Shown piece by piece: positions 9,001 through 63,556 of a DNA stretch of 64,000 bases (position 1 is the stretch's first letter; each line of letters begins with the position of its first letter). The position numbers were made by a program, and so were the translations under genes. The DNA comes from Centroscyllium fabricii. Lineage: Eukaryota. The notes under the pieces were generated by a model. The model made no database searches. It had not been told where the DNA came from and saw only the letters and a program-made list of their open reading frames with translations. The DNA lies in NCBI GenBank assembly GCA_051313645.2, contig JBNRSN020000010.1, positions 9,548,001 through 9,612,000 on the forward strand. Reading direction: 5' to 3'.

Positions 9001-9417
9001 GGGGACACGGTGGCACAGTGGTTAGCACTGCTGTCTCACAGCACTGGAGAGCCGGGTTCAAATCTAGGCTCGGGTACTATCTGTGTTGAGTTTGAACATT
9101 CTCCCCGTGTCTGCGTGGGTTTCCTCCGGGTGCTCCGGTTTCCTCCCACACTCCAAAGATGTGCGGGTTAGGTTGATTGGCCAGGATAAATTGACCCTTA
9201 GTGTTAGGGCGATTGAATGTGTGTGGTTACGGGGATAGGGTGGGATATTTGGATATTTGTCGATGCAGGCTCGATAGCGATCGAGGGATATGGGGAGAGG
9301 GCAGGGGCGGAGTACTGGGTTTAGATGATCAGCCATGATCTCATTGAATGGCGGAGCAGGCTCGAAGGGCCGAATGGCCTACTCCTGCTCCTAGTTTCTA
9401 TATTTCTACGTTTCTAT
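9001..9417 (+). mobile_element. Full-length HE1 V-SINE
   Basis: tRNA-derived head (A box tggcacagtgg, B box ggttcaaatc), V-domain (ttctccccgtgtctgcgtgggtttcctccgggtgctccggtttcctcccaca) and HER1-type 3' tail. Confidence 0.9.
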
Positions 9418-10145
9418 TGTCAGTGTAGGGGTAAAAGTGGTACAGGAGCGGCATTGCCACAGTTAGTGACAGAGCAGGGGTAACACTGGGAGAGCAGGGG
9501 CACGGTCAAACTTAGTGTCAGTGTAGGGGTAACACTGGGAAAGGAGGGGCACCTTTCACATCTAGTGTAACTGTAGGGTTAGCAGTGAGATACGAGGGAA
9601 AGGGTCACATCTAGTTTTAGTGTAGGGGTAATATTGGGACAGGACGTTCATTGTCACTTCTACTGTCAGTGCAGCGGTAACACTGGGACATGAGGGAAAC
9701 AGTCTCATCTAGTGTCAGTGTAGTGATAGCACTGGGACGGAAGTGCCACAGTGAAATCTAGTGTCAATATCGGGGAAATACTCGGACAGGATGGACACTG
9801 TTAGATCTAGTGTCAGAGTTTTCGAAACAATGGGACACGTGTGACACAGTCACATCAAGGTAAGTGTCATGGTAGCAATAGGACAGGAGTGGCACGGTCA
9901 AGTCTATTGTAAGTTTAGGGGTCCCACTAGCACAGGAGAGCCACCGTCAATCTAATGTCAGTTTACGTTAAATTCTGGCACATGTGGGACCGGGTCACCC
10001 CTAGCGTCAGTGTAGGTTTAACACCGAGAGAGGAGGGACACAGCCACATCTAGTGTAAATGTACTATAGCACCGGGTGACTAGGGGCACGATCACATCAG
10101 GTGTAACTGTAGGAGTAACACTCCGAGAGGACGGACACGGTCACT

Positions 10146-10305
10146 TACATAGAAACATAGAAGATAGGAGCAGGAGTAGGCCATTCGGCGAAGGGGCAGC
10201 GCTCCGAAAGTTTATGAGATCAAATAAAACTGTTGGACTATAACCGAGCGTTGTGTGACTTCTTACATTTGTCCAAAACCAGTCCCACTCCGGCACCTCC
10301 ACATC
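10146..10305. mobile_element. Minus-strand HE1/HER1 tail (10146-10187) fused to plus-strand Penelope-like terminus (10188-10305)
   Basis: acatagaaacatagaagataggagcagg... followed by gaaggggcagcgctccgaaag...aataaaactgttggactataacc...ccagtcccactccggcacctccacatc. Confidence 0.65.
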
Positions 10306-10902: not shown

Positions 10903-10925
10903 GGTTAAGATTTATTAGGATTTAA

Positions 10926-11043
10926 TCTGATTGATTGGCTGGAGAACTGATTTGTGGATAAATATAAATATCCTTCCAGTGACTCAGTCTTGCGCCAGTC
11001 AAAGTATTTCATCTAATAGAGAATTCATCCATTCTGACAGAAA
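10926..11043 (+). promoter_or_regulatory. Putative core promoter/5'UTR of GPCR pseudogene
   Basis: ctgattg (CCAAT-like) and gtggataaatata (10954-10966, ending 78 nt before the ATG). The 13-mer and its spacing are identical upstream of the intact paralog. Confidence 0.6.
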
Positions 11044-14000
11044 ATGGGCAATCAAATATTAGGTTGATCAAAGAGATTTTTTTGCCGTTTCTCGCGGCCG
11101 CCGCTGTCTCCGGTGAGCCTTTGTAAGCTGCGTTTTGTTAATCGGTTTTAACTCTATCCATGTACATACAAGCTCTTTGATAAACTAACGGGCTTTTCCA
11201 GATGGCAGCATTACACAGCCGGTAATGACTGGAAAGAAATCTTGAACCACTTGCCCACACCTACCGCATTCACCTTAATCGGTAACCTCTCTGATGTCAT
11301 ACTGACCTTTGAAGCTACAACACAAGGAATTTCAGCGGATTTCCGAATCGTCTTGTGCAGAGTTAGCGCTGCAGGAGTTCATTAAAGTTTATGGGCGGAT
11401 TCCCAGATTATTGGTCCAACATTAATCCTGTTCTGACTGCTCCGTATTGATACTCACACTGACTGAGTAAAATGCTCTCAACAGGTATCTCCGTATATAT
11501 TTCATCAGACGCTGAACATTATTCCTCTCCTCTCGCTCTCTTACAGAGAATTTGTGACAATTGTGATGCTCCCGGGGAAAAGGTGGCATTTCCAAGTGTA
11601 TTTCTTTCTCCATGGTTGCCATGGCTAAAGCAGATCTGCTGGTCATGATCTTCAATTTAATAGTCTATAACATTTTCAGTAATCACTTTTCACTGTTGCT
11701 CCTGTGCCACACTCCCGTGTCTAATTTATTTTTCGACGTGGCTGTTGTCACCATCGATTACAATGCTTGGCTCACCGTCTTCTTCACATGTTCCCGATGT
11801 GTTGTTATCTGCTGCCAGAGGTTTAATACAAAGTATTGCACCGAGAGAAATGCGGCCGTGATTACGACAACTTTCACTGTCCTAGTCGTTTTAAGGTGCA
11901 TCTCCATGTTGTTTGTTTTGAAGCTGGACAAATATTTAACAAGGTGCAGTGGGGTTGCGGGAACAGTATTGCTTTTGTTGACTCATCTCTTGGCGTTGCC
12001 TACCTCTGGTTTCACTGCGCCTGGTCATTTATGTTATGGCAAGCAGAGACCACAGGGGGCTCCGCGGACATACGATTCAAAATCAGAGAGAGCCAGAGAT
12101 TCAGAACTGAAAAAAAGTCAACAACTTCACTGTCCATCAGTAACGGGCAGTATTATATTGCTATGGCTGACAACTGCCATGAGTTTGTCAACTACCAGAC
12201 TGACAAAGCCCACTCGTTACCGAGTTGACTGCACATAACCTGCAGTCAACCGGAAGCGAAGAGGACTGCCTTCCATATTAAAAGTGAGTTATCAGGTGAC
12301 TGACGAGTTCAATGCCGGATCTGCAGTCTCTGTCATAGGTTCGGGCAGACGTTGGTTGAAGGGGTGGTTGGTGGGCAGGTTGATTTAACGGGCGCTCGAT
12401 TCGCTGTTTGTACTATGCTTCTGCTCGCTCCCGGCGAAGAGACGCGAGGTGTTCAGCACCTTCATAGAAACATAGAAGATAGGAGCAGGAGTTGGCCATT
12501 CGGCCCTTCGAGCCTGCTCCGCCATTCAATTAGATCATGGCTGGTCTTTCAGATTCAGTACCATCTCCTAGCCTTCTCCCCATATCCCTTGATCCCTGCA
12601 GCCTGAAGAAATATATCCAACTGTTCCTTGAATATATTTAATGAACCGGCGGCCGCCCCCCGCCCCCCCACCCTTGCTGGCATAGAATTCCACAGGTTCA
12701 CCACTCTCTGTCTGAAGAGATTCCCAATCATCTCAGTCCCAAATGGCTTTCCACATATCCTTAGACTATGGCCACTGGTTCTGGAGTCCCCTTTCATCGG
12801 TTACATCCTTCCTGCATCCAGTCTGTCCAGGACTGACAGGATTTTATAGGTTTAGATGAGATCACCTCTTAATCGTCTGAATTCCACCGAGTGTACGCCC
12901 AATCGAATTAATCTCTCCTCATACGTCATTCGTGCCATCCCAGGTATCAGTCTGGTGAATCTACCCTGCTCTCTGAATTTCAATGGCAAGAACCTCTTTC
13001 CTCAGATGAGGCGACAAACACTGCACACAATACCCCAGGTGTGGCCTCCCCAATGTCCCGTAGAGCTGCAGCAAGATATCCTTGTCCTTGTAGTTGAAAC
13101 CTCTTGCTACGAGGTTCAACATACCATTTGCCTTCTTAACCGCCTGTTGCACCTACATGCTTAACTGCAGTGACTGGAGCACAAGAACAACCAGGTCTCT
13201 TTGCACTTCCCCATCTGCCAATATATTGCAATTCAAATAATAAACTGCCCTCCTGTTTTTGCAACCAAAGTTGATAAACTCTCATTCCTCCACATTATAG
13301 TGCATTTGCTATGTGTCTGCCCATAACCTGAGGAACAACGTTAGTCTCCACTTCGAGAGGCAACGATTAATAAAGGTTAGTCAGCATGGTTTCATCAAGG
13401 GAATATCGTGTCTGAATAACTTGATTTAATTTTTTGAAGTGGTGACCAGGTGTGTGGAAGGGGGTAGTGCAGTGGACGTGGTATACATGGATTTTACTAA
13501 TGCGTTTGATAAAATCCCGCATAGGGGTCTGGTAAAGCAGGTAAGAGCCCATGGGATCCAGGGCACCTTGGCAAAGTTGATCCAAAACTGGCTTAGTGAC
13601 AGGAGGCAGAGTGTGTTGTTCGAAGGTTGTATTTGTGACTAGAAGCTTGTGGCCTGTGCGGTACCGCAGGGATCGGTGTTGGGTCCCTTCCTGTTTGTAG
13701 TCTATATTAACGATTTAGATATTAATGTAAAAGGCATGGTCAGTAAGTTTGCAGATGACACAAAATTTGAGAGGTTGGTAAATATTTAGGAGGAAATCCG
13801 CAACATGCAGGACGAAATAGATGGGTTGGTCAGATGGGCGGAACAGTGGCAAATGGAATTTAATCTTGAAAAGTGTGAGGTGATGCATTTCGGTAGGTCT
13901 AACATGGCAAGGGAATAAACCATGAATGGTAGGTCGCTGGAGAAGGCAGAGGATCAGAGGAAACTTGGAGTGCAGGTACATAGGTAACTGAAGGCAGCAG

Positions 14001-16098
14001 AGCATGTGGACAAGGTGGTTAAAAAGGCATATGGGATACTTGCCTTCATGGTGGCACAGAATATAAGAGCAGGGAATATATGATGGAGCTGTACAAAACG
14101 CTGGTAAGACCAGAGCTGGAGTACTGTCTGCAGTTCTGGTTGCCACACTATAGGAAGGATGTAATAACTTTGGAGGTGGTGCAGCGAGGATTCACCAGGA
14201 CGCTGCCTGTGCTGGGGAGCGTCAGCTGTGAAGAGTGAGTGGAAAGGCTATGGTTGTTTCCCGTGGAGCAAAGGAGGCTGAGTGGGGACCTGATTGATGT
14301 TTACAAAATCATGAGGGGAATAGATAATTTGGGTGAGTGGAACTTTATCCCTTCTTTGAGGGGTCAATAACTAGGGGGCATAATTTTAGCGTAAAGGGCA
14401 GGAGGTATCGCGGGGAAGTGAGGAATTACTTTTTCGCCAGAGGGTGTGTGGAATCTGGAACTCACTGCCTGAGAGGGTGCTAGAGGCGGCACCCCTCACA
14501 GCACACAAAAAGCATTTGGATGAGCACCTGAAATGCCACAGCATACAAGGCTACGGAGCAAATGCGGGAAAATGGGATTAGTATAGACTGGGATTGATGG
14601 GCGGCATGGACGCGATAGGCCGAAGAGCCTCTTTCTAGAACATAAGAACATAAGAAATAGGAGCAGGAGTAGGCCAATCGGCCCATCGAGCCTGCTCCGC
14701 CATTCAACAAGATCATGGCTGATCTGATCCTGCCATCAATTTTATTTTTACTCTCCACCCCGCCCAGACCAATGTGATCACCTGGGAGAGGTGAAAAACC
14801 AGATTTTAAAAAAAAGTAGCCAATTTTGGAGAAAATAAATAAATCAGGAAAATTCCTCTCCGACCCATCTAGGCGATCGAAAACTGGTCCAGGTGATCAC
14901 ATGGCCGATCTGAACCTAGCCTCAAGTCCACTTACCAGCCCGTTCAGCATAACCCCTAATTCCCATTAATTCCAGGAAACTGTCTATCTCAGTTTTAAAT
15001 TTATTCAACGTAGTAGCTTCTACAGCTCTCTGGGGCAGCAAATTCCACAGCCGCATCACGCTCTGAGTAAACAAGTTCCCCCTCATCTCAGTTTTGAAAT
15101 GGGAGCCCCTTATTTTAAGATTATGCCCCCTAGTCCTAGTCTCACCCACCATTGGGAACATCCTCACCGCATCCACCCGATCAAGCCCTCTCACAATCTT
15201 ATATATTTCAATAAGATCGCCTCTCATTCTTCTGACCACCAATGAGTAGAGGCCCAATCCACTCAACCTCTCGTCATATGTTAGCCCCCTCATCCCCGGA
15301 ATTAACCTAGTGAATCTTCTCTGCACTGCCTCGAGAGCAAGTATCTCCTTTCTTAAATAGGGACACCAGAACTGCACGCAGTATTCCAGGTGTGGTCTCA
15401 CCAATACCTTGTACAACTGCAGCAAGACCTCCCTGCTTTTATACTCAAACCCCTAGCAATAAAAGCCAACATTCCGTTGGCCTTCCATACCCCCTGCTGC
15501 ATCTGCATATTAACTTTCTGTGTCCCCTGCACCAGGACCCCCAGATCCCTTTGCACTGAAGTACTTTCCAGTTCCTTTCCATTTAGATAATAACTCGCTC
15601 TATTATTTTTCCTGCCGAAGAGCATAACTTCACATTTTCCAGTATTATACTCCATCTGCCAATTCTCTGCCCACTCACTTAGCCTATCTATGTCCTTTTG
15701 CAGGTTTTTAATGTCCTCCTCATTCATCACCCTCCCTCCCATTTTGTGTCATCCGCAAACTTTGATATGTTGCACTTGGTCACTTCTTCCAAATCGTTAA
15801 TATAGATTGTAAAGATTTGAGGTCCCAGCACCGACCCTTGCGGAACACCACTAGTGACTGACTGCCAGTCTGAGAACGAGCCATTTATCCAAACTATCTG
15901 TTTTCTGTTCGAAAGCCAATCCTCCACCCATGCCAGAATATTACCCCCAACCCCGTGATTATTTATCAGGAGTAATAATCTTCTGTGGGGCACCTTGTCA
16001 AAAGCCTTTTGGAAGTCCAAATACACCACATCCACTGATTCCCCTTTAGCCACCCTATATGTTATGTCCTCAAAGAACTCTAGCAAATTTGTCAAACA

Positions 16099-16293
16099 CA
16101 GTTCATTAAACATATTCAAGAGGGAATTGGATGTATTTCTTCAAGCTAAAGGGATTAAGGGTTATGGAGAAAAGGCGGGGACGGGGTACTAGCTTGCTAA
16201 AGATCAGCCATGATCTCATTGAATGGCGGAGCAGGCTCGAAGGGCTGAATGGCCTACTCCTGCTCCTATCTTCTATGATTCTATGATTCTATG
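16099..16293 (+). mobile_element. HER1 3' fragment nested in the CR1 RT region
   Basis: Interrupts gtcaaaca|tgacttccc and ends in (attctatg)n with atga microhomology. Confidence 0.9.
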
Positions 16294-19200
16294 ACTTCCC
16301 CTTTGTAAAACCATGCTGACTTTGTCCTATTAAATGTTGTTTATTCAAATGCCCTGTTACTGTTTCCTTAATAATAGATTCTAACATTTTGCCAACCACA
16401 GATGTTAGGCTAACTGGTCTATAATTTCCAGCCTTCTGTCTATTACCCTTTTTAAATATGGGCGTTACGTTAGCAGTTTTCCAATCTGACGGAACCTTTG
16501 CCGAGTCCAGTTAGTTTTGAAAAATGATTACCAACGCATCCACAATCCCTACCGCCACTTCCTTCAAGACCCTATGATGTAAGCCATCAGGTCCAGGGGA
16601 TTTATCCTCCTTAAGTCCCATAATTTTCCCAAGTACCACCTCCTTAGTGAGTTTAAACGTAAGTAGCTCCTCCCCCCCAAGAGCCACCTGTTTATCCAAT
16701 GATGGGATATTTTGAGTGTCCTCTACTGTAAAGACGGATACAAAATATTTGTTCAGCGCTTTTGCCATCTCCATGTCTCCTACCATTAATTTCCCGGTCT
16801 CATCCTCTAAAGGACCAACATTTACTTTAGCCACCCTTTTTCTTTTTATGTAACTATAGAAACTCTTGCTATCTGTTTTTATATTTTTTGCTAACTTACT
16901 TTCATTATCTATCTTCCCTTTCCTAATCAATCTTGTTGTTATCTTTTGCTGACATTTAAAAAGCTTCCCTATCTTCTATCTTCCCACTAGATTTAGCTAC
17001 CTTATATAACCTTGTTTTTAGTCGGATACTCTCCTTTATTACTTTACTTAGCCACGGATAGTTGTTTTTAATTTTACACCCCTTTTTCCTCAGTGGAATA
17101 TATTTATCTTGAAAGTTATAAAATAACTCCTTGAATACACACCATTGATCATGTACCGTCTTACTCTTTAATCTGTTTCCCCAGTCCACCTTAATCAATT
17201 CTGCTCTCATACCATCATAGTCTCCTTTATTTAAGCTCAGTACCTTTGTTTGAGATCCGACCCTCTCACCCTCTAATTGAATTTGGAATTCGACCATGTT
17301 ATGGTCACTCTTTCCAAGGGGTTCCTTTACTAGGACATTTTTAATTAATCATGTCTCATTACATAGGACCAGATCTAAGATTGCTTGCTCCCTGGTCGGT
17401 TCAGTTACGTGCTGTTCAAGGAACCCATCCCTAATACACTCAATGAACTCTTCCTCAAGGCTGCCCTGTCCAACTTGATTAGTCCAGTCAATATGAAAGT
17501 TAAAATCTCCCATAATTATAGCTGTTCCCTTATTACAAGCCCCAATGATTTCCTGATTTATACTCCGACCAACTGTGTTACAACTGTCTGGAGGCCTATA
17601 GACTAAGCCCACTAGTGTTCTTTTCCCTTTATTATTTATTTTTTCCACCCAAACTGTTTCACCATCTTGATGCTCTGAACCAATATCATTCCGCTGTATT
17701 GCCGTGATACCTTGCCTTACTAACATAGCCAAATCACCTCCCCTTCCTTCCCGCCTGTCCCTCCTAATCGTTAAATACCCTTGTATGTTTAATTCCCAGT
17801 CCTGGTCACCCTGTAGCCATGTCTCCGTAATTGCCACAAGATCATACCCATATGTAACTATTTGTGCCGTCAGCTCGTCCATTTTATTACGAATACTACG
17901 TGCATTCAAATAGAGGACTTTCAAATATGTCTGACTCTTCATTCCTGCTTTTTCCCTTTTTTCAACTTTAGCATTATCTCCATACATTCTTTCCTTTCCT
18001 GACACACTCTGTCTTTTAATTGCCCCGTTGTTACCTATGTCCATTACCTTCTCCAGTGTCATTTTATTTATTTGCTCTCTAGAAACCTCCCTGCCACTAA
18101 TTAGATTTAAAGCCCTCTCTACAGCCCTAGTTATACGATTCTCCAGGACACTGGTCCCAGCCCGGTTCAGGTGAAGCCTGTCCCGCCGAAACAGTTCTCC
18201 CCTGTCCCAGTACTGCTGCCAGTGTCCCAAGAAGCAAAACCCAATTCTCCCACATCAGTCTTTGAGCCACGCATTTAACTACCTAATTTTGTTTACCCTA
18301 GCCAAATTCGCTCGTGGCTCAGTTAGTAACCCAGAGATTATTACACTTGAGGTTCTGTTTTTTAGTTTGACCGCTAGCTGCTCATACTCCTGTAACAGAA
18401 CCTTCTTCCTTGTCTTATCTATGTCGTTGGTACCAACATGTACCAGGACAAGTTGTTCCTCCCCTTCCCACTGCAAGTTTCACTCCAGTCCAGAAGAGAT
18501 GTCCTTAACCCTTGCACCAGGCAGGCAACACAGCCTTCGGGACTCCCGCTCTCGGTTGCAGAGAACCCTATCTATCCCCTTGATGATACTGTACCCTACC
18601 ACTACAACATTTCTATTAACTCCCCCCTCTTGAATGGCCCTCTGCTCCACGGTGATGTGGCCAGGTTGCTCATCCTCTCCACAGTCCCCGCTCCCGCCCT
18701 CACAGGGAGTAAGAGCCTCAAACCTGTTGGACAAGAGCAAGGTCTGCGGCTCCTCCAACACTGCCTCCTTGATTCCCGTACTTGCCTCATTTATAGTCAC
18801 ACCATCCTGTCCCTGGCCATGATCTACATTTAACTTAATTAATCTATTTGGTGTGGCTGTTTCCTGCAACATAAAGTCCAGGTATTTCTCCCCTTCCCTG
18901 ATGTGTCGCAGTGTTTGAAGCTCAGAATGTAGCTCATCAACACGAAGCCGGAATTCCTAGAGCAACAAACACTTGCTGCAAATGTAGTCACCGCGAGCAT
19001 CAATGGTGTCCACGGACTCCCACATCTCACAGCAGTAACACATCACCTGCACACCCATTCTATATATTTAATTATACTTATTAATTATACCCAATATACT
19101 AAATATCACGCTAATAAAGAGCACTTTCAACCTATGAGGTATAAAGAGTAAAAGGGAAGCAACAGTACTTACCAACAAGCTGATTTACCAACCTTCTTCT

Positions 19201-20015
19201 GATTTACCCTCCGATATTTTTCCCCGGCGCCAGCCGAACCTAATAGTTTGGACAGAAGCAAAGACAGAGAAGCACCTCCCTCACCTCCCACTTGCCCGAA
19301 CTCTCGCACTAACCAAACTCTCGTTAGCACTCGATGCCCTCCGCACACTGTGCACGCCGCACTAAGCCCCGCCCCTTGTATAATCGTGCTTCAACTTCCT
19401 GTTTTGATTCAAAATACCTTCCACTGATTAAATTTATGATATTTTAACTTACCCTATTAAATAAATAAAATAGTTAAATTAAATAAACTTTTGTAAGCCT
19501 TTCACCAATTCACCACTTTCAAATCTCAGCTCAAATAACAAAGCACTTTTCAAATAAGCCCCGCCCCTTTTATAATCGTGCTTCAACTTCCGGTTTTGAT
19601 TCAAAATACCTTCCACTGATTAAATTTATTATATTTTTCACTTACTCTCTTAAATAAATAAAATAATTAAATTAAATATACTTTTGTAAGCCTTTCACCA
19701 ATTCACCACTTTCAAATCTCAGCTTAAAAAACAAAGCACATTTCAAATAAGCCCCGCCCCTTTTATAATCGCGCTTCAACTTCCGGTTTTGATTCAAAAT
19801 ACCTTCCACTGATTAAATTTATTATATTTTTAACTTACTCTCTTAAATAAATAAAATAATTAAATTAAATATACTTTTGTAAGCCTTTCACCAATTCACC
19901 ACTTTCAAATCTCAGCTCAAAAAACAAAGCACTTTTCAAAAAAGCCCCGCCCCTTTTATAATCGTGCTTCAACTTCCGGTTTTGATTCAAAATACCTTCC
20001 ACTGGTTAAATTTAT

Positions 20016-23000
20016 TGTGGCGGCACGCCCACTGGGACATCAAATCCACCATGGGGACTCCGCGGAACAAAGCTCCGCTCATCCGGGTGACGCAACAACG
20101 TCACCACGTCGGCCGACGCGATGACGTCACCACCTGCGCGACCGTTTAAATATGCCTGTCTCGAGTGGTTCACACTATTTCTTGTTTTGTACTAGTTGAT
20201 TAAAGCTGTGTATTCTCTAGCTCTGGCTCACGTGTGGTTCGTAGGCCTGCCGACGCTACAGTGGTGAATCCAAACTGGAACGACTTCGAGAGAAGAAAAG
20301 CTGCCGCAGGATCTGGGACCACCAGCCAAAGACTTTAATCAGAAAACATGGTAAACCCAAGAAACCAAGCTGCACGAACGCAGGGAGCTGGACAGAACGC
20401 CGGACGTGGACTAACTCTACCCGAGTTCTGGGAGCACCGGCCAGCGGCCTGGTTTGTCTGCCTTGAGGCCAGCTGCTGCACACATGGCATCCAAGGGGGC
20501 GAGCGCTACGACCTCGTGTTCTCAGCCCTAACACAGACGACGATTGATCGGATGTGGTCAAAAATACAGCGCGTGCCCGTCGCAGGCAGGTATGAAACGC
20601 TTAAGGCCACGTTTATCAAAAGATTTACCCCCTCCCAATTTGAGCGCGACTGCCAGCTCCTCGACCTCCCTGAACTCGGGGACGCAGACCCATCAGAACT
20701 CTTAGGTCAGATGCAAGCGCTCACACCCAACTCGGCCTCCCTTTTCCGCACCGTCTTCCTCCTCAAACTGTCCCACGCCATCAGACCGGCCTTGGCGGCC
20801 CTTGGCCACCGGAGTGATGAGGAGCTCGGAGAGGAGGCCGACAGGCTCATGGAGGCGCAGCGCACCCGCTCAACCATGTCCGACTCTAACTCCGCATCGG
20901 TAGCGCGCAGCCAATCACCCCCCAGGCACAACTTTACACCTGAACCTAGGGCCCCGTGCCCGCCCAGACAACCGCGTCCCTCTAGCACCGGCTGGTGCTA
21001 CTACCACACGCGGTTCGAACACAAAGCACACCGCTGTGTCCAGCCATGCGCGTTTAAGCCACGGCCCAACTCAGCCCCCACCATTTCTGTAGGCAACACA
21101 GGAGCACTGCTCTTCGCCACAGACAGCGGCACAGGCCTCAGGTTCCTCTGCGACACAGGCGCACAGCACAGCATTGTGCCAGCCTCCCCCGCAGAAACCA
21201 AACAAGGCACTCGGGGCCCGCCACTAGCGGCAGCCAACGGCTCTAATATAAAAATGTACGGCACCCGCAAGCTAAATATAACCCTTGCTAGCCACGCGTA
21301 CACCTGGGATTTTGTAACGGCCCAGGTCACTTCACCCCTCCATGGGGCAGACTTCCTCTGCGCCTGCGGCCTACTGGTCGATGTAACTCGGCGCCGCTTG
21401 GTAAATTTAAATACCATGACGACCATCCCATGCTCCACAGGGCCCGCACTCCTGGCCCACGCGGCAGCCCAATGCCGCTCCAGGGGCTCCGATGCCTACG
21501 GCACGCTCCTGGCATAGTTCCCCGCCCTAACCAAGGCCAAACACGGGGTGGAACATTTTATTACTACCACAGGCCCGCCCGTCCATGCCCACGCCCGTAG
21601 GCTCGACCCGGCCAAGCAGGAGATCGCGTGCACCGAGTTCCGCATCATGGAGCAACTCGGTATAATCCGCCACTCCAGCAGCCCCTGGTCGTCTCCGCTC
21701 CATATAGCCCCAAGCCCGACGGAGGCTGGCACCCCTGCGGCGACTACCGCCGCCTTAATAACGCCACTTCCCCGGATAGGTACCCCGTAACCCACATCCA
21801 GGATTTTTCCGCCAGATTAGCGGGTTGTACGATCTTTTCTAAGATCGACCTGGTGCGTGGCTACCACCAGGTTCCGGTGCACCCGGCGGACATTCCCAAA
21901 ACGGCTGTAATTACCCCCTTCGGACTCTTTGAGTTCCTGAGGATGCCCTTCGGCCTTAAAAACGCGGCCCAGGCCCTCAAGCGCCTCATGGACGCGGTCC
22001 TAAGGGACTTGAAGTTAATCTTCGTCTGCTTAGACGACATCCTCGTGGCCAGCACCTCCCCCCAGGAACACCTCCTGCACCTCAGGACTCTGTTCCTGTG
22101 CCTTACCGAACACGGCCTTATCTTAAGCCCCTCCAAATGCAAATTCGGCTACGAGACCATCGACTTCCTCGGCCACCGCATTTCCCAAAAAGGGGCCATA
22201 CCCCTGCCCTCTAAGTTGCAGGCGGTACAATAATTCCCCCGCCCGCACTACATTAAAGGGCCGCAGGAATTTTTAGGGATGGTTAATTTTTATAACCGCT
22301 TTGTCCCAGGAGCAGCCGCTCTCATGGCTCCCTTATACCAGGCCACCCACGGGCAGTCCAATAAGGCTGCAGTCGAGTGGAAGGCCGACGCCGCCACCGC
22401 CTTTACCGCAACCAAAACCGCCCTGGCAAAAGCCACCCTCCAAGCCCACCCTAGGCCCAACGCCAGAGTAGCCCTCACCACCGACACCTCCGACCACGCG
22501 GTCGGGCCGTATTTGAGCAGTGGACCGGCAACTCGTGGCAGCCCCTGGCCTTTTTTAGCCGGCAACTCCGGCCCCCAGAGGTTAAATACAGTGCTTTTGA
22601 TAGGGAGCTACTCGCTCTCCATCTGGCGGTGCGACATTTTAATTTCCTCTTGGAGGGCCGCCACTTCACAGCCTTCAGTGACCACAAGCCACTCACGTTC
22701 GTGATGGCTTATGTCGCTGAACCCTGGTCGGCCAGACAGCAGCGCGAACTCGCGGCCGTGTCGGAATTTACAACCGACATCCAGCACATTTCCGGCCGCG
22801 ACAACGTGGTCGCTGACTGCCTCTCACGCCCCACCAATAACACCACCGAAATGGCGGTTGATTTCGCCCAGCTGGCCGCTGACCAGCTGGCCGACCCTGA
22901 CCTACTCAACGCAGCAAATAAACTCCCCGGCCTCCACTTGGCCAATATCGTGCACGGCCCCGCTGCCACCGGCGTCTGCTGCGATGTATCCTTACCGCAA

Positions 23001-24439
23001 CCCAGGCCGGTCGTGCCCCACGCTTGGAGGCAACACATATTTAGGACCCTGCATGACCTGTCCCACCCCGGTGCCCGCGCATCCATTAAGTTAATATCGG
23101 CCCGTTTCATATGGCGCGGCCTGCGCAAGGACGTCCATGCCTGGGCCAGCTCCTGCATAGCCTGCCAGCGCTCCAAAGTGCATAAGCACATCAGGGCACC
23201 GCTGGAAAACTTTAAAGTACCGACCAGGCGTTTTGACCATGTACAATTCGATCTCGTCAGGCCACTACTGCCATCCCGGGGCCACACGCACCTAATGACC
23301 ATGGTCGACCGCAACACTCGCTGGCCAGAAGCAGTCCCCCTCACCGCCACCAGCACCACGAACTTGGCCAGGGCGTTCATCGCCAACTGGGTAGCCCGCT
23401 TCGGCGTGCCCACAGACATCACCTCCGACAGAGGACCCCAGTTAACTACGGCATTATGGGCGGCCATCGCACGCGACCTCGGGGCAACACTACAATGAAC
23501 CACTGCATACCACCCACAGGCGAATGGCCTATGCGAACGGTTCCACCGCTCGATGAAGGCATCACTACGGGCCACACTAAAAGACGCATCGTGGACTGAC
23601 CGCCTTCCATGGGTCATCCTCGGGCTGCGCTCGGCAGTCAAAGAAGACCTTAATGCCTCGGCAGCGGAGCTCATCTACGGCCAAACTTCAACGCTGCCGG
23701 GTGAGATACTGGCTGAGCCCAACGCTCCCAGGTCAGCCGACCAGTATTTAAAAGACTTTGCTAACCCGGCACGAGCTTTCAAAGCACTACCAGTGTCCCG
23801 GCACGGAGAGCCGGCAGCTCGGGTGCCGGACAACATTAAAAATGCGAAATTCGTGTTCGTCCGGCGCGACAGGCACCGATCCCCACTACAGCCACCTTAC
23901 GATGGCCCCAACAGAGTGCTCCGGGCGGGAGCAAAAGCTTTCGAATTGCAGATGGGCAACAGGACTGACACTGTACCAATAGTCCGGCTCAAGCCGGCAC
24001 ACGTCATAGCGGGCGAGACTACGGTCCCCGCACAACCACCACAACGCGGTCACCCTCCCGCAACAAAACCCGCCCACACTCCACCGCAGAACCAGAGGCT
24101 ACAAGTGACAAGGTCCGGCCGCATCATCCGGCCACCCCAACGGCACACATAGACACTGTCACTATTCCTCCCGGACGGATTCTGGGGGGAGCTGTGTGGA
24201 GGCACGCCCACTGGGACATCAAATCCGCCACGGGGACTCCGCGGAGCAAAGCTCCGCTCATCCGGTTGACGCGATGACGTCACCACGTCGGCCGACGCGA
24301 TGACATCACCAACCGTGGGACCGTTTAAATATGCCTGTCTCGAGTGGTTCACTCTCTTTCTTGTTTTGTACTAGTTGATTAAAGCTGTGTTTTCTCTAGC
24401 TCTGGCTCACGTGTGGTTCCTAGGCCTGCCGGCGCTACA
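20016..24439 (+). mobile_element. Ty3/Gypsy LTR retrotransposon (CsRn1-like), full-length
   Basis: 245-bp LTRs at 20016-20260 and 24195-24439 (TG...CA), TTAT target-site duplication, PBS-like tggtga at 20262 and PPT gggggga before the 3' LTR. Confidence 0.95.
20348..24152 (+). pseudogene. Gypsy gag-pol (gag, protease, RT, RNase H, integrase) with stops and frameshifts
   Basis: FWEHRPAAWF; CYYH..F...A..C..PC knuckle; FLCDTGA; [13 protein letters not shown]; FSDHKPL; HHCC Zn-finger; ITSDRG; QPPYDGP. Confidence 0.92.
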
Positions 24440-27400
24440 TTATTATATTTTTAACTTACTCTCTTAAATATATAAAATAATTACATTAAATATACTTTTG
24501 TAAGCCTTTCACCAATTCACCACTTTCAAATCTCAGCTCAAAAAACAAAGTTATTTTCAAATAAGCCCCGCCCCTTTTATAATCGTGCTTCAACTTCCTG
24601 TTTTGATTCAAAATACCTTCCACTGATTAAATTTATTATATTTTTTACTTACTCTCTTAAATAAATAAAATAATTAAATTAAATATACTTTTGTAAGCCT
24701 TTAACCAATTCACCACTTTCAAATCTCAGCTCAAAAAACGAAGCACTTTTCAAATAAGCCCCGCCCCTTTTATAATCGTGCTTCAACTTCCAGTTTTGAT
24801 TCAGAATACCTTCCACTGATTAAATATATTATATTTTTAACTTACTCTCTTAAATAAATAAAATAATTAAATTAAATATACTTTTGTAAGCTTTTCACCA
24901 ATTCACCACTTTCAAATCTCAGCTCAAAAAACTGTGCTGTGTTACTCTATGACTCTATGACTCTATCCCCTACCTTTCAAAATCACATTGGAATTTTTTG
25001 ACATCCGCCACACAGCATACCCTGGATTATTCTCCTCTAACTTTTGCGGTCTTGTACCAGAGATTTCGAGGGGTCGGTGGGGATGCTGCAATTCATCAAA
25101 AAGGCTTTGCGGGTGTCTTGGAAGTATTTCCTCTGCCGATTTGGGGCTCTCTTGCCACGGCGGAGCTCAGAGTAGTGCGATTGTTTTGGTAATCTCTAAT
25201 TGGGCATGTCGATGATGAGATCAGTTTATCAGAGCCAACAGGGCCTGATCAAATTTTCGATGCTGGTGATGTTAGCCTGAGAGAGTGTCTGTCCTGCTAA
25301 TGGATTTGCAGGATCTCGCGGAGGCAGCGTTGCTGGTACCTATCCATTGATTTGAGGTGCCTGCTCCACCTGGTCAATGACTCTGAGGCATACAGGAGGG
25401 CTGGTTGTACTACTCTACTGTACACCATGGTCTTGGTGCTGGATTTGCGACCCTGGTCTTCAAGCACTGTCTTCGGTAGGTGACCGATTGCTGCACGGGC
25501 ACACTTTGGGCGCTGATGAATATCGTCCTCGGTGACTTCCCTTGTTGACAGTTGTCTCCCAATTAATGCAATGTGGTCCACGTTGCTGAATGTCTTGACA
25601 TGGATTTTGATAATCGTGCGGTAGTTCTATGTTGCAGTGGCAGGTTGGTTGAAGCAGGTTAATGTAATGCACGTGCTCTCGTACTTTTTGGGGAAGAGTG
25701 TCAAATGCCTTTGTGATGTCAAAGAAAGCCAAGTGCAGTGTTTGGTGCTGTTCCCTGCATTTTCCCTGTAATTGCTGCGTGGTGACTATAATGTACATTG
25801 TGTCTCTTAGTGGGCAGCATACGCATTTCGACTCTGGGAGCAGTTCTTCAGGCACTGGGAGAAGCCGATTGAGGAGGAATCTAGTGATGACACTCTCTGT
25901 GCCAGACAGCAGGAAAAATCTTTCGTAATGGCAGCAATCGGATTTGTCACGTTTCTTGAAAATGTTCACAATAACAGCATCTCTTAGTTCTTTGGCATGC
26001 TCTTCTCTTCGCAGATAAGAGCATGCTGAGGAATGGAATGGATAACACTGGCATCGAAGACATATTTTTGGTTAAAGAGATCTTTGAAGTCATCCTTCCT
26101 GCGGGCACTAACTACATCTCTGACGTTGTTGTGTAGCTCTCCGTACTTTGCATACGGTTGGGTAGGATCCTGGTCCATTAGAGCGTAGGGAAGCTTTGAC
26201 AGCAGTAAAGTATCCACGCAAGTCTTGGTTGTTGGCATGTTGCTGGACCCCTGCAATTTCGCCACCCACCACCTGTTCTTCAGTTCGCGATACTTTTGTT
26301 GGAAATCGGCCTTCAGGAGTCTGCAGAGCTGCTTTCTTGCTCTGCAGTTGTGTTGCTTTTTTTCCAGATCAGGAATGCCTTGCACTTGCAACTTATTAGC
26401 TCTTGGATCACCTGATCATTCTCCTCGAACCATTCTTGATGTTTCCTGCTCGACTGTGCGACGGTCGCTTCACAAATGTTGATTATTGAGCCCTTGAGTG
26501 AATCACAGGCGCTGTGGACGCTTTTTATCGGCATCACTGGGAGTGATCAGTTTTTTTTGTGAGGTGCAGACTGCATAGAGCTTTCTTAATGGGATCCTGT
26601 TGTGCTCCAGCGTTGATGTTCCTTCGGCATTGTTTCTGCTGCCGCCACTATTTGGGGCTGCATTGATCGAGATGAGAGCGCAGATTAGGCGGTGCTCTGT
26701 CCAGCAATCATCAGCTCCTGTCATGGTACCGATGAAGCGTAGGTCCTTGCAGTCACTCGCATTGCTGATGAAATATTCCATCAAATACCAGTGCATAGAG
26801 CAAAGGTGAAGCCATGAATCATTTTACGTGACTAACTGCCAGAACAGGTCTGCTAAGATTTGTCCTTCCCTAACTTCTCTCTGCCAGTCTCACCTCCCCA
26901 GACGTCTCTGTTCTTTCCAATTCTGTCACTAAAGTCGCCAAGGGGGATTAGTTTGTCGCCCGTTAGTACTCGGGACCGGGACTGTTCGAGGCTGGAGTAG
27001 AACTGCTCTTTGGACTCAGCTGTCGCTTGCAATGTTTGGGGCATTCGCACCGATGACCGTCGTATGCCAATTCCGGGCTAGCTTGAGCTGAATAGTTATG
27101 AGGCGATCGTTTCTACCACTAGCGGAACCTCGTATATGCCCAACTTGTTCATTTATTATGGCAGAGACTACCCCATTGATGCAGTGTTCTTCTTCAGATT
27201 TGGCTTTCCAGAATAAGGTTTACAAACTGCCTTGCTCCTTGAGCTGGCCTTCCCCTGCCTGCCTAGTCTTGCTTAGTGCGACCATGTCAATTTCGGAACA
27301 TCCGAGATCCCAGGCAGCGATAGCGGCACGGCATTCCAATATGTCACGATTGGGGTTGGCCATGAGGGTCCTGACGTTCCAGGTCCCTAACTCTATTTTA

Positions 27401-28599
27401 AAGGGACGAAAATGCCTGTGCGTGCTTTATTTTAATGTGGGGTAACCGTTGCACACCAGCTAACACGGGCTTGACAGAGCAAACGCTTGCTCAAATGGCA
27501 AGGGGATCCAAGCCGATTGGACACCAGGATCAGAAACAACGGTCTAGCACACAGAAACACATAGGACGACTGTCCTCCTCCCTCCTTTCCGGGACGGATG
27601 GAAGACCCTATATATTCTACCACTGAAACCGGAACAATGCTTTTAAATTGCTTTCAAAACGATTGCATTTAAGCAGCGAAGAAAATAAAATTCAGCGAAG
27701 AGCTGAATAAGTTAGCAAAATCGCCCTGGACACTCATTCTGAGATTAGTTAGGAAATGTGATAATTAATCAATCAAACGAAAGTTTCGTCATAACTAAAG
27801 GTCAAACTAAGCTCAGTTTCCACCGTAGAAAGTCATTCTTCCTTATAATGTGAGTCATGTGAGAGTTTTTGTGTGAACATTTCTTATATTTTGCAGCATG
27901 CATTTGATGGCTCCAGTTCTTAAATTTTCATGCTCACATCATTGAGTACATATAACCCGTCATTAAAAAATTATCATTTTTCAAATTCAGGGATCAAAGA
28001 TAATATAGATGAGCTTCAGCAGCGGACATGTGCTCAACAGAAGAATGCACCTAACACTGTATATTCTGTGATGGGGAACGGCAGTTTTAAATCATCAGTA
28101 AAGTTTAATTTGCTGCCAACCAATCAAAATTCTTGCGACCACCTATATTGGTAACTTTCCTCTAAGTGTCTTGTGCACGGTCTCTCTATGGGACTCCATT
28201 CCTCATTACCAATTGGAGCCATCTCTTCTCCCATGATTTGTGATCGAATGGAGGAAACTGTCGGAATTTGATTCATCGATATGACCTTTTACCTGTTACC
28301 TCCCAGATAGATTCTTTAAAGATCGATTATACTCTGACTGTTGTCTCTCATTCAACACAAAGTTGGAGTCAGCTCTTATTTTCTGCTGTCGATCAAAGTA
28401 AAATGATTAATATTATTATTATTCTGTTCTCAATCAGTCTTTCAAACGAAGGTGTGAAGGAATATAAAATGAATGACTTCTCATAAAGATATTCATTATT
28501 ACAATTGTTGCAAATGACCTGTTAAATCACTGCCAGTTTAAGCAATTTACAGCCTTCCGGACTCAATATCGATTTCAAAATTTCAGAACTAAAACTCGG

Positions 28600-47274: not shown

Positions 47275-49978
47275 TGATTAAGGAGTCAATCACAGCCATT
47301 AGGCGGGTCGACCTAATGGACGATTCCTCAAACGAGGCACTATGTGTGGAGGTAAAAAATAAAAAGGGGGTTGCACCTTACTGGGAGTTTATTATAGACC
47401 ACCAAACAGTAAAGGGGAGGTAGAGGATAAGATATGTGAACAAATCACGAAGATAAGTGAAAATAATAAAATAACAATATTAGGGGACTTTAATTTCCCC
47501 AATATCAACTGGGAGAATCAAAGTGTGAGGGGCACGGAAGGTTCAGCATTCTTACAATGCAGCCAAGAAATTTTTTTGAAACAATATGTTGGGTCACCTA
47601 CAAGGGGGTGGGGGGGCGGTACTAGACCTAATACTTGGGAACGAGGACGGGCAGATAGAGGAGGTAACAGTGGGGGAGCACTTCGGGGATAGCGACCACA
47701 ATTCAGTTAGTTTCAAAATTGTAATGGAGAAAGATAAAAATGGACCAGGGGTAAAAATACTAAACTGGGGGAAGGCGGATTTCAATAAAATTAGGAACGA
47801 TGTAACCGCAGTAGATTGGGGCCATCTCCTCAGAGGAAGATCTGCATCAGAGCAGTGGGAGGCCTTCAGAGGGGAAGTCGGGAAGATACAGGAGGAACAT
47901 GTTCCTGCAAAAATTAAGGGTGGGGGAGACAAACAAAGGGAACCTTGGATGTCTAGGGATATATGTAAATTAATGAAGAAAAAAAGGGGGGCTTTTAATG
48001 AATATAAACGGCTAAAAACTGAGGAGGCATTAGGGGAGTATAAGAAATATAGGGGTGATTTAAAGAAGGAGATAAGAAAAGCCAAGAGAGGTCATGAGAT
48101 TACAATGGCCGGTAAAATCAAGGATAACCCTAAGGCATTTTATAGTTATATAAGAAACAAAAGGATCACGAGGGAAAGAGTGGGGCCCATTAAGGACGAT
48201 AGCGGAAAGCTGTGCGTCGAGCCTGAGGAGGTGGGGGAGGTACTAAATGAATTCTTCTCTTCAGTATTCACAAGAGAGAGGGACGATACCGACATCGAAA
48301 TCGGACAGAGTGTAGGGGGGGGGGGGGGGGTAATTGAGGATATTACCATTACAAGGGAAGAAGTTCTAGAAATCTTGGGAGGCTTAAAGGTGGACAAATC
48401 ACCAGGGCCGGACGCGATGTTCCCCAGGCTGCTGTTCGAGGCCAGGGAGGAGCTTGCGGGCCCCCTGTCTCAAATCTTCAGGACCTCTCTCGCGTCAGGG
48501 GATGTACCTGATGACTGGAGAACGGCTAATGTGGTACCCCTGTTTAAAAAGGGTAGTAGGGACAAACCGGGTAACTATAGGCCAATTAGTCTTACATCTG
48601 TGGTAGGGAAAGTAATGGAAAAAATTCTGAGGGACAAAATCAGTTCGCATTTGGACAAACAAGGTCTAATAAGAGACAGTCAGCATGGCTTCGTCAAAGG
48701 TAAGTCGTGCCTGACTAATCTGTTGGAATTCTTTGAGGAGGTAACAAAGAGGGTGGATGAAGGGAGTACTGTGGACGTAGTGTATATGGACTTTAGCAAA
48801 GCTTTTGATAAAGTCCCACATAGGAGACTAATAACAAAGGTTAGAGCGCACGGGAGACAGGGCAACTTGGCACAGTGGATCGAAAATTGGCTGGGGGATA
48901 GGAGACAAAGTGTAACGGTAGAGGGCTGCTTCTGTGACTGGAAACCAGTAACCAGTGGTGTCCCCCAAGGATCGGTTTTGGGACCCTTACTGTTTCTAGT
49001 ATACATCAACGATTTGGATATGGGAGTAGGGGGTATGATCAGCAAATTCGCTGATGATACGAAAATCGGAAGGGTGGTAAACAACGATGAAGATAGTAAG
49101 GGGCTTCAGGAGGATATAGATATAATGGTTAATTGGGCAGAAAAATGGCAAATGGAGTTCAACCCAGAGAAATGCGAGGTCATTCAATTCGGTAGACCAA
49201 ATGTGGTAAGGGAATATACCATGAACAACAAAACGTTAAGTAGGACCGAGGAACAGAGGGACCTGGGGGTACAGGTGCACAGCTCCCTGAAGGTTGCTGG
49301 ACACGTTAACAAGGTGGTTAAGAAGGCATACGGAATTCTCGCCTTTATTAACCAGGGCATAGTATACAAAAGTAGGGAGGTAATGTTAAACTTGTATAAC
49401 ACACTGGTGAGACCTCAGCTGGAGTACTGTGTGCAGTTCTGGTCACCGCACTTCAGGAAGGATGTGGTTGCCCTGGAAAGGGTGCAGAGAAGGTTTACCA
49501 GGATGATACCTGGTCTGGGGGACTTATGCTACGAAGAAAGGCTGGACAGGCTGGGGTTGTTTGCCTTGGAGAAGAGAAGGTGGAGGGATGACATGATTGA
49601 GGTGTACAAGATCATGAGGGGACATGATAGGGTAGACAAAGGGGCATTGTTTCCCCTGGTGGGAGAGTCAAGTACTAGGGGACATAGATTCAAGATCAGG
49701 GGGGGGAGGTTTAGGGGGGAGGTAAGGAGAAATGTCTTTACCCAGAGGGTGGTGGAAGTCTGGAACTCCCTGCCTGTGAGGGTGGTGGAGGCAGGAACCA
49801 TCACAACATTTAAAAAATACTTGGACCAGCACATGAAGGACCATAACATACAGGGTTATGGGCCAGGTGCGGGCAATTGGGGTTAGTACAATGAGGAGTT
49901 TTTCTGGGCCGGTGCGGACTGGATGGGCCGAATGGCCCTTATCCGCACTGTAAAATTTCTATGATTCTATGATTCTAT
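47275..49978 (+). mobile_element. Young 5'-truncated CR1 LINE inserted in the LTR element
   Basis: Starts mid-endonuclease (IKESITAIRR, LGVYYRPP, GDFN) and ends in (attctatg)n. Confidence 0.95.
47586..49886 (+). CDS. CR1 ORF2 (EN C-terminus + reverse transcriptase), 766-aa uninterrupted frame
   Basis: [58 protein letters not shown]. Confidence 0.9.
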   Translation: MLGHLQGGGGAVLDLILGNEDGQIEEVTVGEHFGDSDHNSVSFKIVMEKDKNGPGVKILNWGKADFNKIRNDVTAVDWGHLLRGRSASEQWEAFRGEVGKIQEEHVPAKIKGGGDKQREPWMSRDICKLMKKKRGAFNEYKRLKTEEALGEYKKYRGDLKKEIRKAKRGHEITMAGKIKDNPKAFYSYIRNKRITRERVGPIKDDSGKLCVEPEEVGEVLNEFFSSVFTRERDDTDIEIGQSVGGGGGVIEDITITREEVLEILGGLKVDKSPGPDAMFPRLLFEAREELAGPLSQIFRTSLASGDVPDDWRTANVVPLFKKGSRDKPGNYRPISLTSVVGKVMEKILRDKISSHLDKQGLIRDSQHGFVKGKSCLTNLLEFFEEVTKRVDEGSTVDVVYMDFSKAFDKVPHRRLITKVRAHGRQGNLAQWIENWLGDRRQSVTVEGCFCDWKPVTSGVPQGSVLGPLLFLVYINDLDMGVGGMISKFADDTKIGRVVNNDEDSKGLQEDIDIMVNWAEKWQMEFNPEKCEVIQFGRPNVVREYTMNNKTLSRTEEQRDLGVQVHSSLKVAGHVNKVVKKAYGILAFINQGIVYKSREVMLNLYNTLVRPQLEYCVQFWSPHFRKDVVALERVQRRFTRMIPGLGDLCYEERLDRLGLFALEKRRWRDDMIEVYKIMRGHDRVDKGALFPLVGESSTRGHRFKIRGGRFRGEVRRNVFTQRVVEVWNSLPVRVVEAGTITTFKKYLDQHMKDHNIQGYGPGAGNWG

Positions 49979-61815: not shown

Positions 61816-63222
61816 CTAGTTTGGCTTTGTTTTATGTTTAAACAATCTCAGAATCAATGTCCAGGGAGATTTCAGCACCTTCTTCAGCTCTTCTCTGAAT
61901 TTTCTCTGAGTCGCTGCATAAATACACGTGTTCGGACATGAACTTAAAAGCTTTAACAGATCTCCGGTTTCAGTGGCGATGTAGGCTGGGTTTGTGCGGT
62001 CGCCTCGGTAGTAAGTGGTGTTCGACATTCTGGTAGTTACAAAATTAACGGCAGCTGTCAGCCACAGCAATATAAAACTGCCCGATACAGTGAATAGCAA
62101 AATTATGGATTTCCTTCGGTTTTCCATCTCTGGATCGCAGTGGTTCTCATTGTTATGACCCCGGAGTCCCCTGCGGGCTCTGCTGGCCACTAAAATACGT
62201 CTGACGGTAACACAATTAAAAAAGGCCATTAGCGTAAAGGGAAGCCAAACGCGCCATACGGTGTGAAACCAGAGATACGCTATACCTTCAACTGAGGAAA
62301 AAAAATCCACACTTGACATACAGCCCCACTGAACGTTGTTAATTATTTGCTCCGATTCAAATGCAAAAAAAACGACAATGCATTTAAAAAAAGTTAGGAC
62401 CGAGAACGTTGTTATAACCGTGGCCGCCGTTCTCTCTGTGCAATACTTTACTTTAAACTTCTGGCAGCAGATAACTATAAATCGGTCAAATGTGAAGGAG
62501 ACAGTGAACCAAACAGACAAATCGAAGGTGACAGCATTCATGTATAGATTAAACTTACACACGGGAGTGTGGGACAGGAATGAAAGTGGGAAGTGATAAC
62601 TGAAAATATAATACACCATTACATTAACGATCATGACCAGTAGATCGGCTGTTGCCATGGCCACCATGTAGACAGAGATACACTTGGAAAGGCCGCAGTT
62701 TCCTCGGGAGAGAATGACGACTGTCAACAAGTTCGCTGTAAGAAAGAGGGTGGAGAGAAATAGTGTTGCAATTTCTGATCGAACTATATATCGAGATACA
62801 TGTTGGGAGCCCTTTACTGCATTCAGTGGGATTATAAACACGGAGCAGTGTGAGAATAGGATTAGTTTCGGAGCAATTACTGGAAAACCCACCCCCACAT
62901 TTTAAAGAGCTACTGCAGCGCTCACTGTGCACGGGGTGACGACGATACTGAGATCCGTCAACATAATTATGTTGGAGCGTCAAAGAGTAATATCACATTA
63001 GTAAGGTTGTCGTATTAAGGAGAACGTAGAAAGTGTGGACATGCACCACACTGCGATAAGCTGACATCTGTAAAACTGTTACCCTATCCAGTATGCGAGA
63101 CAAACAGAGACTGTAAACACGGATTAACAACAAACCGGTTACAATTGCTCACCGGGGGCACCGAACAAAGCGAGAATCGGGTAGTAAATCTCCTTTATCA
63201 GCAGTATAGCTGGTCGCCCCAT
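61816..63222 (-). CDS. GPR139/GPR142-like class A GPCR, two exons (63222-63153, 62735-61816), 329 aa
   Basis: Exon 1 MGRPAILLIKEIYYPILALFGAP+G|gtgag; a 417-bp intron ending ctttcttacag|CG; exon 2 ANLLTVVILSRGNCGLSKC..AMATADLLV, PVC, FTFDRF, FILLWLT, SSCPNTCIY. Spliced length 990 nt, in frame. Confidence 0.92.
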
Positions 63223-63340
63223 TTTCTGTGAGACCGTATGCTTTCTGTTGGAGATGAAAGACTCTCACTGGCTCACGGCTGAGGCAATGGAAGGGAATCT
63301 ATATTTATCCACACATCAATCCTCAAGGGAGTCAATCAGG
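63223..63340 (-). promoter_or_regulatory. Putative core promoter/5'UTR of the GPCR
   Basis: gtggataaatata at 63312-63300 (TATA/forkhead-like), ending 78 nt before the ATG, with ctgattg upstream. Conserved with the pseudogene. Confidence 0.6.
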
Positions 63341-63556
63341 TTCAACCTTAATTGGCATTAGTTACAGTCATTGAACAAATAGAATTAGGTAAGTTGTTTT
63401 TTTACTGATACGCCGGAAAAACTGTGAACATTATATTGCATATGTTCAAATACATGCATAATACGAATGTTATTTGGAAATGGAAACTGGAATTACCAAA
63501 TACTGGAGCAGTCCGTTTTCCAGCAGGACTGGTTGAAGCAGCTGCACTGGTAGCCA

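Follow-up and report, generated by a model that had tools for sequence, protein, structure and literature searches.

The gene at 63222-61816 (minus strand) of the window, i.e., the whole 64,000-nucleotide stretch of Centroscyllium fabricii DNA analyzed here, is an intact two-exon G protein-coupled receptor (GPCR) gene of class A that encodes 329 aa, and it belongs to a chondrichthyan-wide receptor expansion whose members are automatically named “probable GPR139” in databases. A ligand pocket that evolves slowly in single-copy relatives and fast in the shark family is the signature of a ligand-diversified repertoire, and we consider the chances about even that this repertoire is chemosensory.

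Exon 1 of the gene (63222-63153; 70 nt, with the ATG at 63222) encodes a short N terminus and the first half of TM1. It is followed by a phase-1 GT..AG intron of 417 nt with a polypyrimidine tract (63152-62736) and by exon 2 (62735-61816; 920 nt), which runs from TM1b through TM7 and helix 8 to the stop and encodes a C83-C162 disulfide pair, DRF (residues 107 to 109), W6.48, and NTCIY (residues 292 to 296). The coding sequence is unbroken over its 990 nt, and 7tm_1 is the sole Pfam match of the 329-aa protein (E = 1e-16), confirming the compact 7TM gene with DRF at TM3 and NTCIY described in an earlier note on this DNA. The AlphaFold2 model of exon 2 (pLDDT 90.5) forms a 7TM bundle that matched class A GPCRs in a fold search, where GPR139 came third among near-equal scores that do not discriminate between class A receptors. 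The class A hallmarks found were 7tm_1, the seven-helix fold, N1.50, D2.50, D/ERx, W6.48, and N7.49/Y7.53, and the activation core is intact. Exactly 24 residues stand ahead of N1.50 in 84 of 108 scored shark homologs, and this shared N terminus supports the start and splice sites of the gene. In addition, a 620-base contig identical to positions 62690-63309 was present in two public runs (possibly including the assembly's own sample), and an artefactual open reading frame (ORF) or an assembly error was rejected as an explanation of the intact gene. The short N terminus and the departure from NPxxY, to which the earlier note had drawn attention, are present but shared more widely: 24 to 27 residues precede 1.50 in single-copy relatives, and human GPR139 carries NFFLY at the NPxxY site. 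Both are ancestral traits and were rejected as signs of a sensory role.

A convergently oriented paralog on the plus strand proved to be dead, as had been claimed, through frameshifts, deletions, and stops. Its 5′ part (10914-12250; 68% nucleotide identity over 1,402 columns including upstream DNA, E = 7e-150) comprises an upstream block (10914-11043), exon 1 (11044-11112), the intron (11113-11546), and an exon 2 that reaches about codon 273, with 1- and 2-nt frameshifts, 34- and 18-nt deletions, and a stop at codon 230. The two copies were said to keep the same 70-nt exon 1 and an intron of about 420 to 430 bp; these parts are indeed homologous, but exon 1 of the paralog is 69 nt long (a 1-nt deletion) and its intron is 434 nt long and 76% identical to that of the intact gene. 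At conserved columns where the gene and the pseudogene differ, the family consensus residue is found 58 times in the gene, 4 times in the pseudogene, and 6 times in neither, which indicates that the intact copy is under constraint. The remainder of the paralog, previously unnoticed along with the split itself, lies at 27595-27777 (plus strand; profile match E = 4.5e-11), where a 3′ part spanning TM7 to the C terminus resumes at the point where the 5′ part breaks off and carries a stop at the Y7.53 codon. The two parts are separated by an insertion of about 15.3 kb (12251-27594) made of LINE fragments, a 193-bp tandem array, and an LTR retrotransposon, and no target-site duplication was identified for it. 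The retrotransposon (20016-24439) has 245-bp terminal repeats that are 92.7% alike, with DUF7041, reverse transcriptase (RT), RNase H, and integrase broken over four frames, and it is flanked by the 193-bp array (19363-20016 and 24440-24932). Since the intron is kept, we rejected the paralog as a retrocopy, and since the fragment at 27.6 kb complements the missing end of the paralog, we likewise rejected it as a third gene.

The DNA upstream of the intact gene also belongs to the duplicated unit. A block comprising the 5′ UTR and the presumed promoter (63223-63442, minus strand), common to many paralogs, contains a TATA-like ATAAATATA at 63308-63300 (minus strand). Summed contig depth in run X1 was 1,205 at 63309-63375, compared to 31 to 100 across the intron. 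In run contigs the block is multi-copy (29 to 39 times) and the intron close to single-copy, suggesting that a promoter or 5′ UTR is conserved across paralogs. The two copies in the window had been described as sharing the same promoter. Their upstream blocks are homologous, with 75% identity over 130 ungapped bp, but this is no better than the intron (76%) or the coding sequence (72 to 76%), and with all three equally diverged the shared promoter signifies only co-duplication within the window.

To estimate the size of the family, exon 2 was used as a query and returned 2,141 clusters at E ≤ 1e-3 among 3,364 candidates. The best 120 of these 2,141 clusters all came from 11 shark species, at 62 to 77% identity. 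Hand tallies of the same best 120 of 2,141 clusters, which cover one subfamily only and possibly include isoforms or haplotype duplicates, gave at least 32 clusters (73 sequences) for the sawshark Pristiophorus, at least 30 (61 sequences) for the horn shark Heterodontus, and at least 25 (95 sequences) for the sevengill Heptranchias. Ten clusters, picked mostly by size, were opened: nine contained a single species, mostly on shared scaffolds and with near-consecutive RefSeq numbers where these were given, and the tenth contained two catsharks. A full-library search yielded 105 clusters at 50% identity and E ≤ 1e-30, a few of which are bony-vertebrate relatives; nine of the ten that were looked up bear chondrichthyan protein names, with stingray, skate, and Callorhinchus among their sources, and one is unnamed. 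In the two runs that best cover the window, a 2-kb stretch was matched by 663 and 605 contigs at ≥85% identity (mostly below 95%), and the summed depth of the most conserved bins was 229 to 283 times that of the gene-identical contig. Depth is not a copy number, yet this value hints at hundreds of genes and pseudogenes, in the range of 200 to 300 copies. Amplification has been very recent in some clades, with 12 to 13 copies at >90% identity. The cluster counts and run contigs therefore speak directly against a family of only one or two copies, and the birth-and-death multigene family that had been proposed is supported in cartilaginous fishes more strongly than the sequence of the window alone could show.

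Database annotation of these receptors is uneven. Several family members (P0002, P0020, P0034, P0094, P0128, P0171, and P0496) carry unrelated automatic names, such as allatostatin-A, FMRFamide, ghrelin, vasopressin V2, capa, or P2Y receptor-like, so that counts based on names will miss family members, and many family models have spurious long N termini where exon 1 was missed. A metagenome scan of 599 candidate stretches found two distant 7TM loci (L001:3001-3834 and L002:2337-2627) at 24 to 29% identity.

Two lineages related to the shark family were recovered from bony vertebrates. Lineage A comprises 20 amphibian clusters, with a different species name each, and sturgeon (P0221, P0294-P0313), and its nearest shark matches are members of the family at 32 to 33%. 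Lineage B comprises coelacanth, teleosts, amphibians, reptiles, and one gene in each of three sharks (P0218, P0229, P0318-P0433), with no mammal or bird in the best 120 of 154 rows. Both lineages are apparently single-copy, which a word-based search cannot prove. A careful tree of 28 rows recovered the shark family as one clade (93/92) joined to lineage A at 100/99, and grouping A with B was rejected (p-AU 0.021) by a test picked after the first tree; a quick tree of 69 rows agreed. The tree rows represent the family and lineages A and B, and the relationship to human GPR139 was assessed by profile scores. Among solved structures, human GPR139 scored best with the family profile (83.8 bits, compared to 64.7 for the next), and it was the best solved-structure match for the gene (E = 7e-6), for the family profile (E = 9e-23), and for both single-copy lineages. 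Membership of the family in the wider GPR139/142/210 clade is supported on this basis, judged against solved structures only. However, median family-profile scores of 234 bits for lineage A and 200 bits for lineage B are 2 to 3 times that of human GPR139, and even unnamed, presumably invertebrate proteins score up to 154, above human GPR139. With an E value of only 7e-6 to human GPR139 and higher scores for lineages A and B, the gene was rejected as a GPR139/142 ortholog, and one-to-one orthology failed in this indirect test. The designation “GPR139/142-like” from the earlier note consequently holds in that GPR139 is the closest solved structure, but the gene comes from a different paralog lineage.

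Rinne et al. (2019, PMC6504862) placed the orphan subtypes GPR210A and GPR210B next to GPR139/142 in coelacanth, gar, and fishes. Lineages A and B probably overlap them, being orphans of the same neighborhood, with a coelacanth member in B. In contrast to the expansion seen here, PMC6504862 reports few genes, and its main text is without sharks or cartilaginous fish. The pocket of lineage A is invariantly basic (R2.61, K6.51, K6.55, R6.59, and R7.35 in 23/23), which suggests an anionic ligand. This lineage is the best handle on the ancestral ligand of the family, and the single-copy sister in Xenopus and axolotl offers a tractable route to it. The lineage B pocket carries E2.61, R3.28, D3.29, R6.51, and D7.36. 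One model from zebra shark and one from tree frog bear TMEM183A isoform names, a hint that the lineage B gene has a conserved neighbor.

To determine how the ligand pocket has evolved, site rates were estimated under LG+G8 and scaled to the average over 206 TM positions for 120 near-subfamily, 42 broad-family, 23 lineage A, and 94 lineage B sequences, after dropping P0002 (internal duplication in the model) and lineage B sequences outside 300 to 380 aa (94 of 118 kept). The 39 pocket positions correspond to a generic class A list that was fixed before the rates were computed and after column variability was known. The relative rate of the pocket was 1.34 in the near subfamily and 1.56 in the broad family, compared to 0.43 in lineage A and 0.67 in lineage B, while the G-protein face stayed at 0.26 to 0.52 in all four sets. 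Expressed as the log2 ratio of family to single-copy rates, the shift reached 1.3 to 1.9 in the pocket and 0.1 to 0.4 at other extracellular-half positions, and in each of four comparisons at most 1 of 20,000 permutations was as extreme. A list-free count pointed in the same direction: 12 of 21 extracellular-half positions that are slow in both A and B are fast in the broad family, compared to none of 22 intracellular positions. These site rates support the proposal that the pocket has diversified as in sensory or immune repertoires. Within the family, however, the pocket did not significantly outpace the rest of the extracellular half (p = 0.6 and 0.22), and relaxed constraint therefore accounts for the rates no less well than positive selection.

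The family is distinct from the known chemoreceptor families of vertebrates. All 64 members scanned match 7tm_1, and none of the 64 matches the Pfam models of OR, TAAR, V1R/ORA, V2R/OlfC, T1R, or T2R. It resembles these families in its clustered birth-and-death evolution, pseudogenes, compact gene, variable pocket, and conserved signaling face, but its ancestry is separate. With a large clustered family, turnover, pseudogenes, and a variable pocket on a conserved signaling face, it has the makings of a chemosensory repertoire. FPR and MRGPR receptors are likewise lineage-specific class A expansions with short N termini and diversified pockets, serving immune, nociceptive, and vomeronasal sensing; they form an unrelated class A branch, and their likeness to the shark family may be functional only. 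Among invertebrate receptors, GPR139/142 cluster with protostome MIP, FMRFamide, and myosuppressin receptors (PMC8514136, PMC11004728), and a snail study found an expansion of srw-type GPCRs and a “probable GPR139” among the genes enriched in the osphradium (PMC10638732). The nematode srw and mollusc expansions within this MIP/FMRFamide/myosuppressin receptor clade are independent of the shark family; nematode Srw (PF10324) matched 0 of 64 members and Srx matched 3 of 64, weakly, while atlas neighbors included Srw/Srx/Srsx for a minority to a majority of members.

The comparison with GPR139 bears on what these receptors may bind. GPR139 is a receptor of brain and pituitary (PMC6443882), coupled to Gq and solved with Gi, and its activation by Trp/Phe and agonists needs F109, H187, W241, and N271 (PMC5430874). 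Human GPR139 was numbered from the profile alignment and checked against the residues named in PMC12775434. In the gene, these four residues and R244 correspond to A91, H181, W248, D282, and A251, so that two of the five positions of the Trp/Phe site (F3.33, H5.42, W6.48, and N7.39, plus R6.51) and two of the four activation residues are kept. The intact gene thus lacks F3.33, N7.39, and R6.51, as well as E3.32 and D2.61. Other features are shared with human GPR139, i.e., the start of TM1 (YY..L...G.PAN.LT.I.LS), a TM3 stretch (S.W.TV..T.DR), a degenerate NPxxY (NFFLY and NTCIY, respectively), H5.42, W6.48, and an acid at 7.36, whereas the agonist contacts D84, E108, F109, W166, R244, and N271 are not kept. 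The family further differs by a C3.25-ECL2 disulfide and a longer ECL2, both absent from GPR139, by T for P at 6.50, and by a DPEMENRRKS motif in ICL3. The idea that the paralogs are chemoreceptors for free L-amino acids (Trp/Phe-like) in the GPR139 binding mode can draw on GPR139 as the best solved-structure match of gene, family, and both single-copy lineages, on the two retained residues, H181 and W248, and on the acid at 7.36, nearly invariant in the near subfamily (E in 117 of 119). It is nonetheless improbable, given that A91 and D282 replace two of the four activation residues in columns that are among the most variable, that the basic residue at 6.51 (K in 23/23 of lineage A, R in 94/94 of lineage B) has given way mostly to A/T/S/V in the near subfamily, and that disulfide and ECL2 are unlike those of GPR139. 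The argument for an amino-acid (Trp/Phe) ligand made in the earlier note is thus not supported, because the gene belongs to another paralog lineage and lacks key residues, and the ligands are probably not Trp/Phe in the GPR139 mode.

In the explanation that we prefer, the gene is one working copy in a repertoire numbering tens to hundreds of class A receptors in each genome, built up in cartilaginous fishes through rounds of tandem duplication and loss that began with a GPR139-related orphan, apparently still single-copy in amphibians and sturgeon. Under the chemosensory reading of this repertoire, each paralog may have a ligand of its own in the helical pocket, be it a small waterborne or dietary molecule or a short peptide, and all would signal by one G-protein route, which would be Gq/11 or Gi/o if GPR139 is a guide. 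The expressing cells would be environment-facing, i.e., microvillous olfactory neurons, taste buds, or solitary chemosensory cells in skin, gill, or gut; if olfactory, they would be microvillous Go/TRPC2 neurons. In its fuller form, this reading posits a further, independently evolved chemoreceptor family, several times larger than the OR, TAAR, V1R, and V2R genes of cartilaginous fishes combined, that came from the GPR139/MIP-receptor branch in parallel to the nematode and mollusc families and is sparsely expressed in olfactory, taste, or solitary cells; we propose this tentatively, as somewhat short of an even chance. Immune and nociceptive GPCR families, FPR and MRGPR among them, show clustered expansion and pocket variation just as typically. 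A role in immune or mucosal surveillance, in which leukocytes, mast-like cells, or barrier nociceptors would sense microbial or parasite peptides and metabolites in the manner of these receptors, is the most serious competitor, albeit an unlikely one. The same signature of fast turnover, species-specific tandem groups, a released pocket, and a fixed G-protein face would fit it, the 12 to 13 copies at >90% identity in some clades suggest an arms race, and chemokine receptors are among the next PDB matches, though at the generic class A level only. Conversely, with 24 residues before 1.50 the receptors are without a long acidic N terminus for a protein ligand, the wider clade consists of neuropeptide and amino-acid receptors (PMC8514136, PMC11004728), and the window contains no immune gene, as the Pfam matches of its 15 other scanned ORFs are mobile-element domains only. 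The chemosensory reading is itself weakened by the catshark olfactory organ, in which microvillous Go/TRPC2 neurons expressing V2R/OlfC receptors are reported as the only type found (PMC10116579).

The expansion might also be largely non-adaptive, with retroelement-rich DNA duplicating a compact 1.5-kb gene into mostly redundant, drifting copies whose constraint is limited to the fold and the G-protein face. The surroundings of the gene, nearly all LINE, LTR, and minisatellite, would agree with this, as would the death of one of the two copies in the window and a pocket rate no higher than that of the rest of the extracellular half. Yet many deep subfamilies persist across sharks, rays, and chimaera, and the strong constraint seen in the consensus residues (58 versus 4) and at intracellular positions would be hard to keep without distinct functions, leaving this explanation with only a small probability. 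We consider least probable a role in reproductive or social recognition, in which sperm, the oviducal gland, or pheromone-sensing cells would carry receptors for conspecific peptides. Species-specific amplification is compatible with it, and MIP/sex-peptide receptors are among the relatives that GPR139/142 have in protostomes (PMC8514136), but nothing points to the gonads and the sex-peptide receptor link is very distant.

The reported total of olfactory receptor genes in cartilaginous fishes is 20 to 62, although their olfactory organs are large (PMC10869828), and they are also credited with generally few GPCRs (PMC8455134). One subfamily of the present expansion alone matches or exceeds this olfactory receptor count in three sharks, under an automatic name. 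A description of the expansion was not found in the literature covered, which took in few subscription papers and some of the supplements: the main text of the catshark genome paper does not mention it, and GPR139/142 are absent from the supplements of PMC7677710 (3 files), PMC10620051 (1 file), and PMC8455134 (12 of 24 files). The expansion is thus apparently undescribed as such, though its proteins are already in RefSeq and earlier notice is possible. If the family is sensory, it would add a vertebrate chemoreceptor family and reopen the sensitivity-versus-discrimination account of shark olfaction, and the view of a tiny repertoire for shark smell would stem from searching four bony-vertebrate families only. 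If immune, it would represent an unrecorded innate sensing repertoire in the oldest jawed lineage.

In the presumed promoter of the intact gene, a homeodomain-like TAATTG (63349-63354) and an O/E-like TCCCNNGRG (63322-63330), both patterns picked after the fact, sit 100 to 130 bp upstream of the gene and no more than 30 bp apart, an arrangement of homeodomain and O/E sites described for OR promoters (PMC3247230). Neither is enriched in the window and the dead paralog is without both; the motifs, not above chance in the window, are a weak lead at most and are given no weight as evidence. Rfam gave no match in the 64 kb. Besides the insertion in the paralog, the window contains a LINE copy at 47580-49886 and LINE fragments at 12.5-18.9, 30.8-32.1, 38.8-40.9, 53.3-55.8, and 63.55-64.0 kb; one LINE copy has a 768-aa open frame with an RT domain, and a LINE 3′ end adjoins the upstream region of the intact gene at about 63556. 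Long, degenerate arrays of a 49-bp minisatellite with strong GC skew lie directly upstream of the paralog (900-3500 and 5640-10150). Finally, three direct repeat pairs of 780 to 880 bp with 79 to 82% identity were found at 29187-30045/34179-35051, 33307-34181/35052-35930, and 46171-46954/57674-58452.
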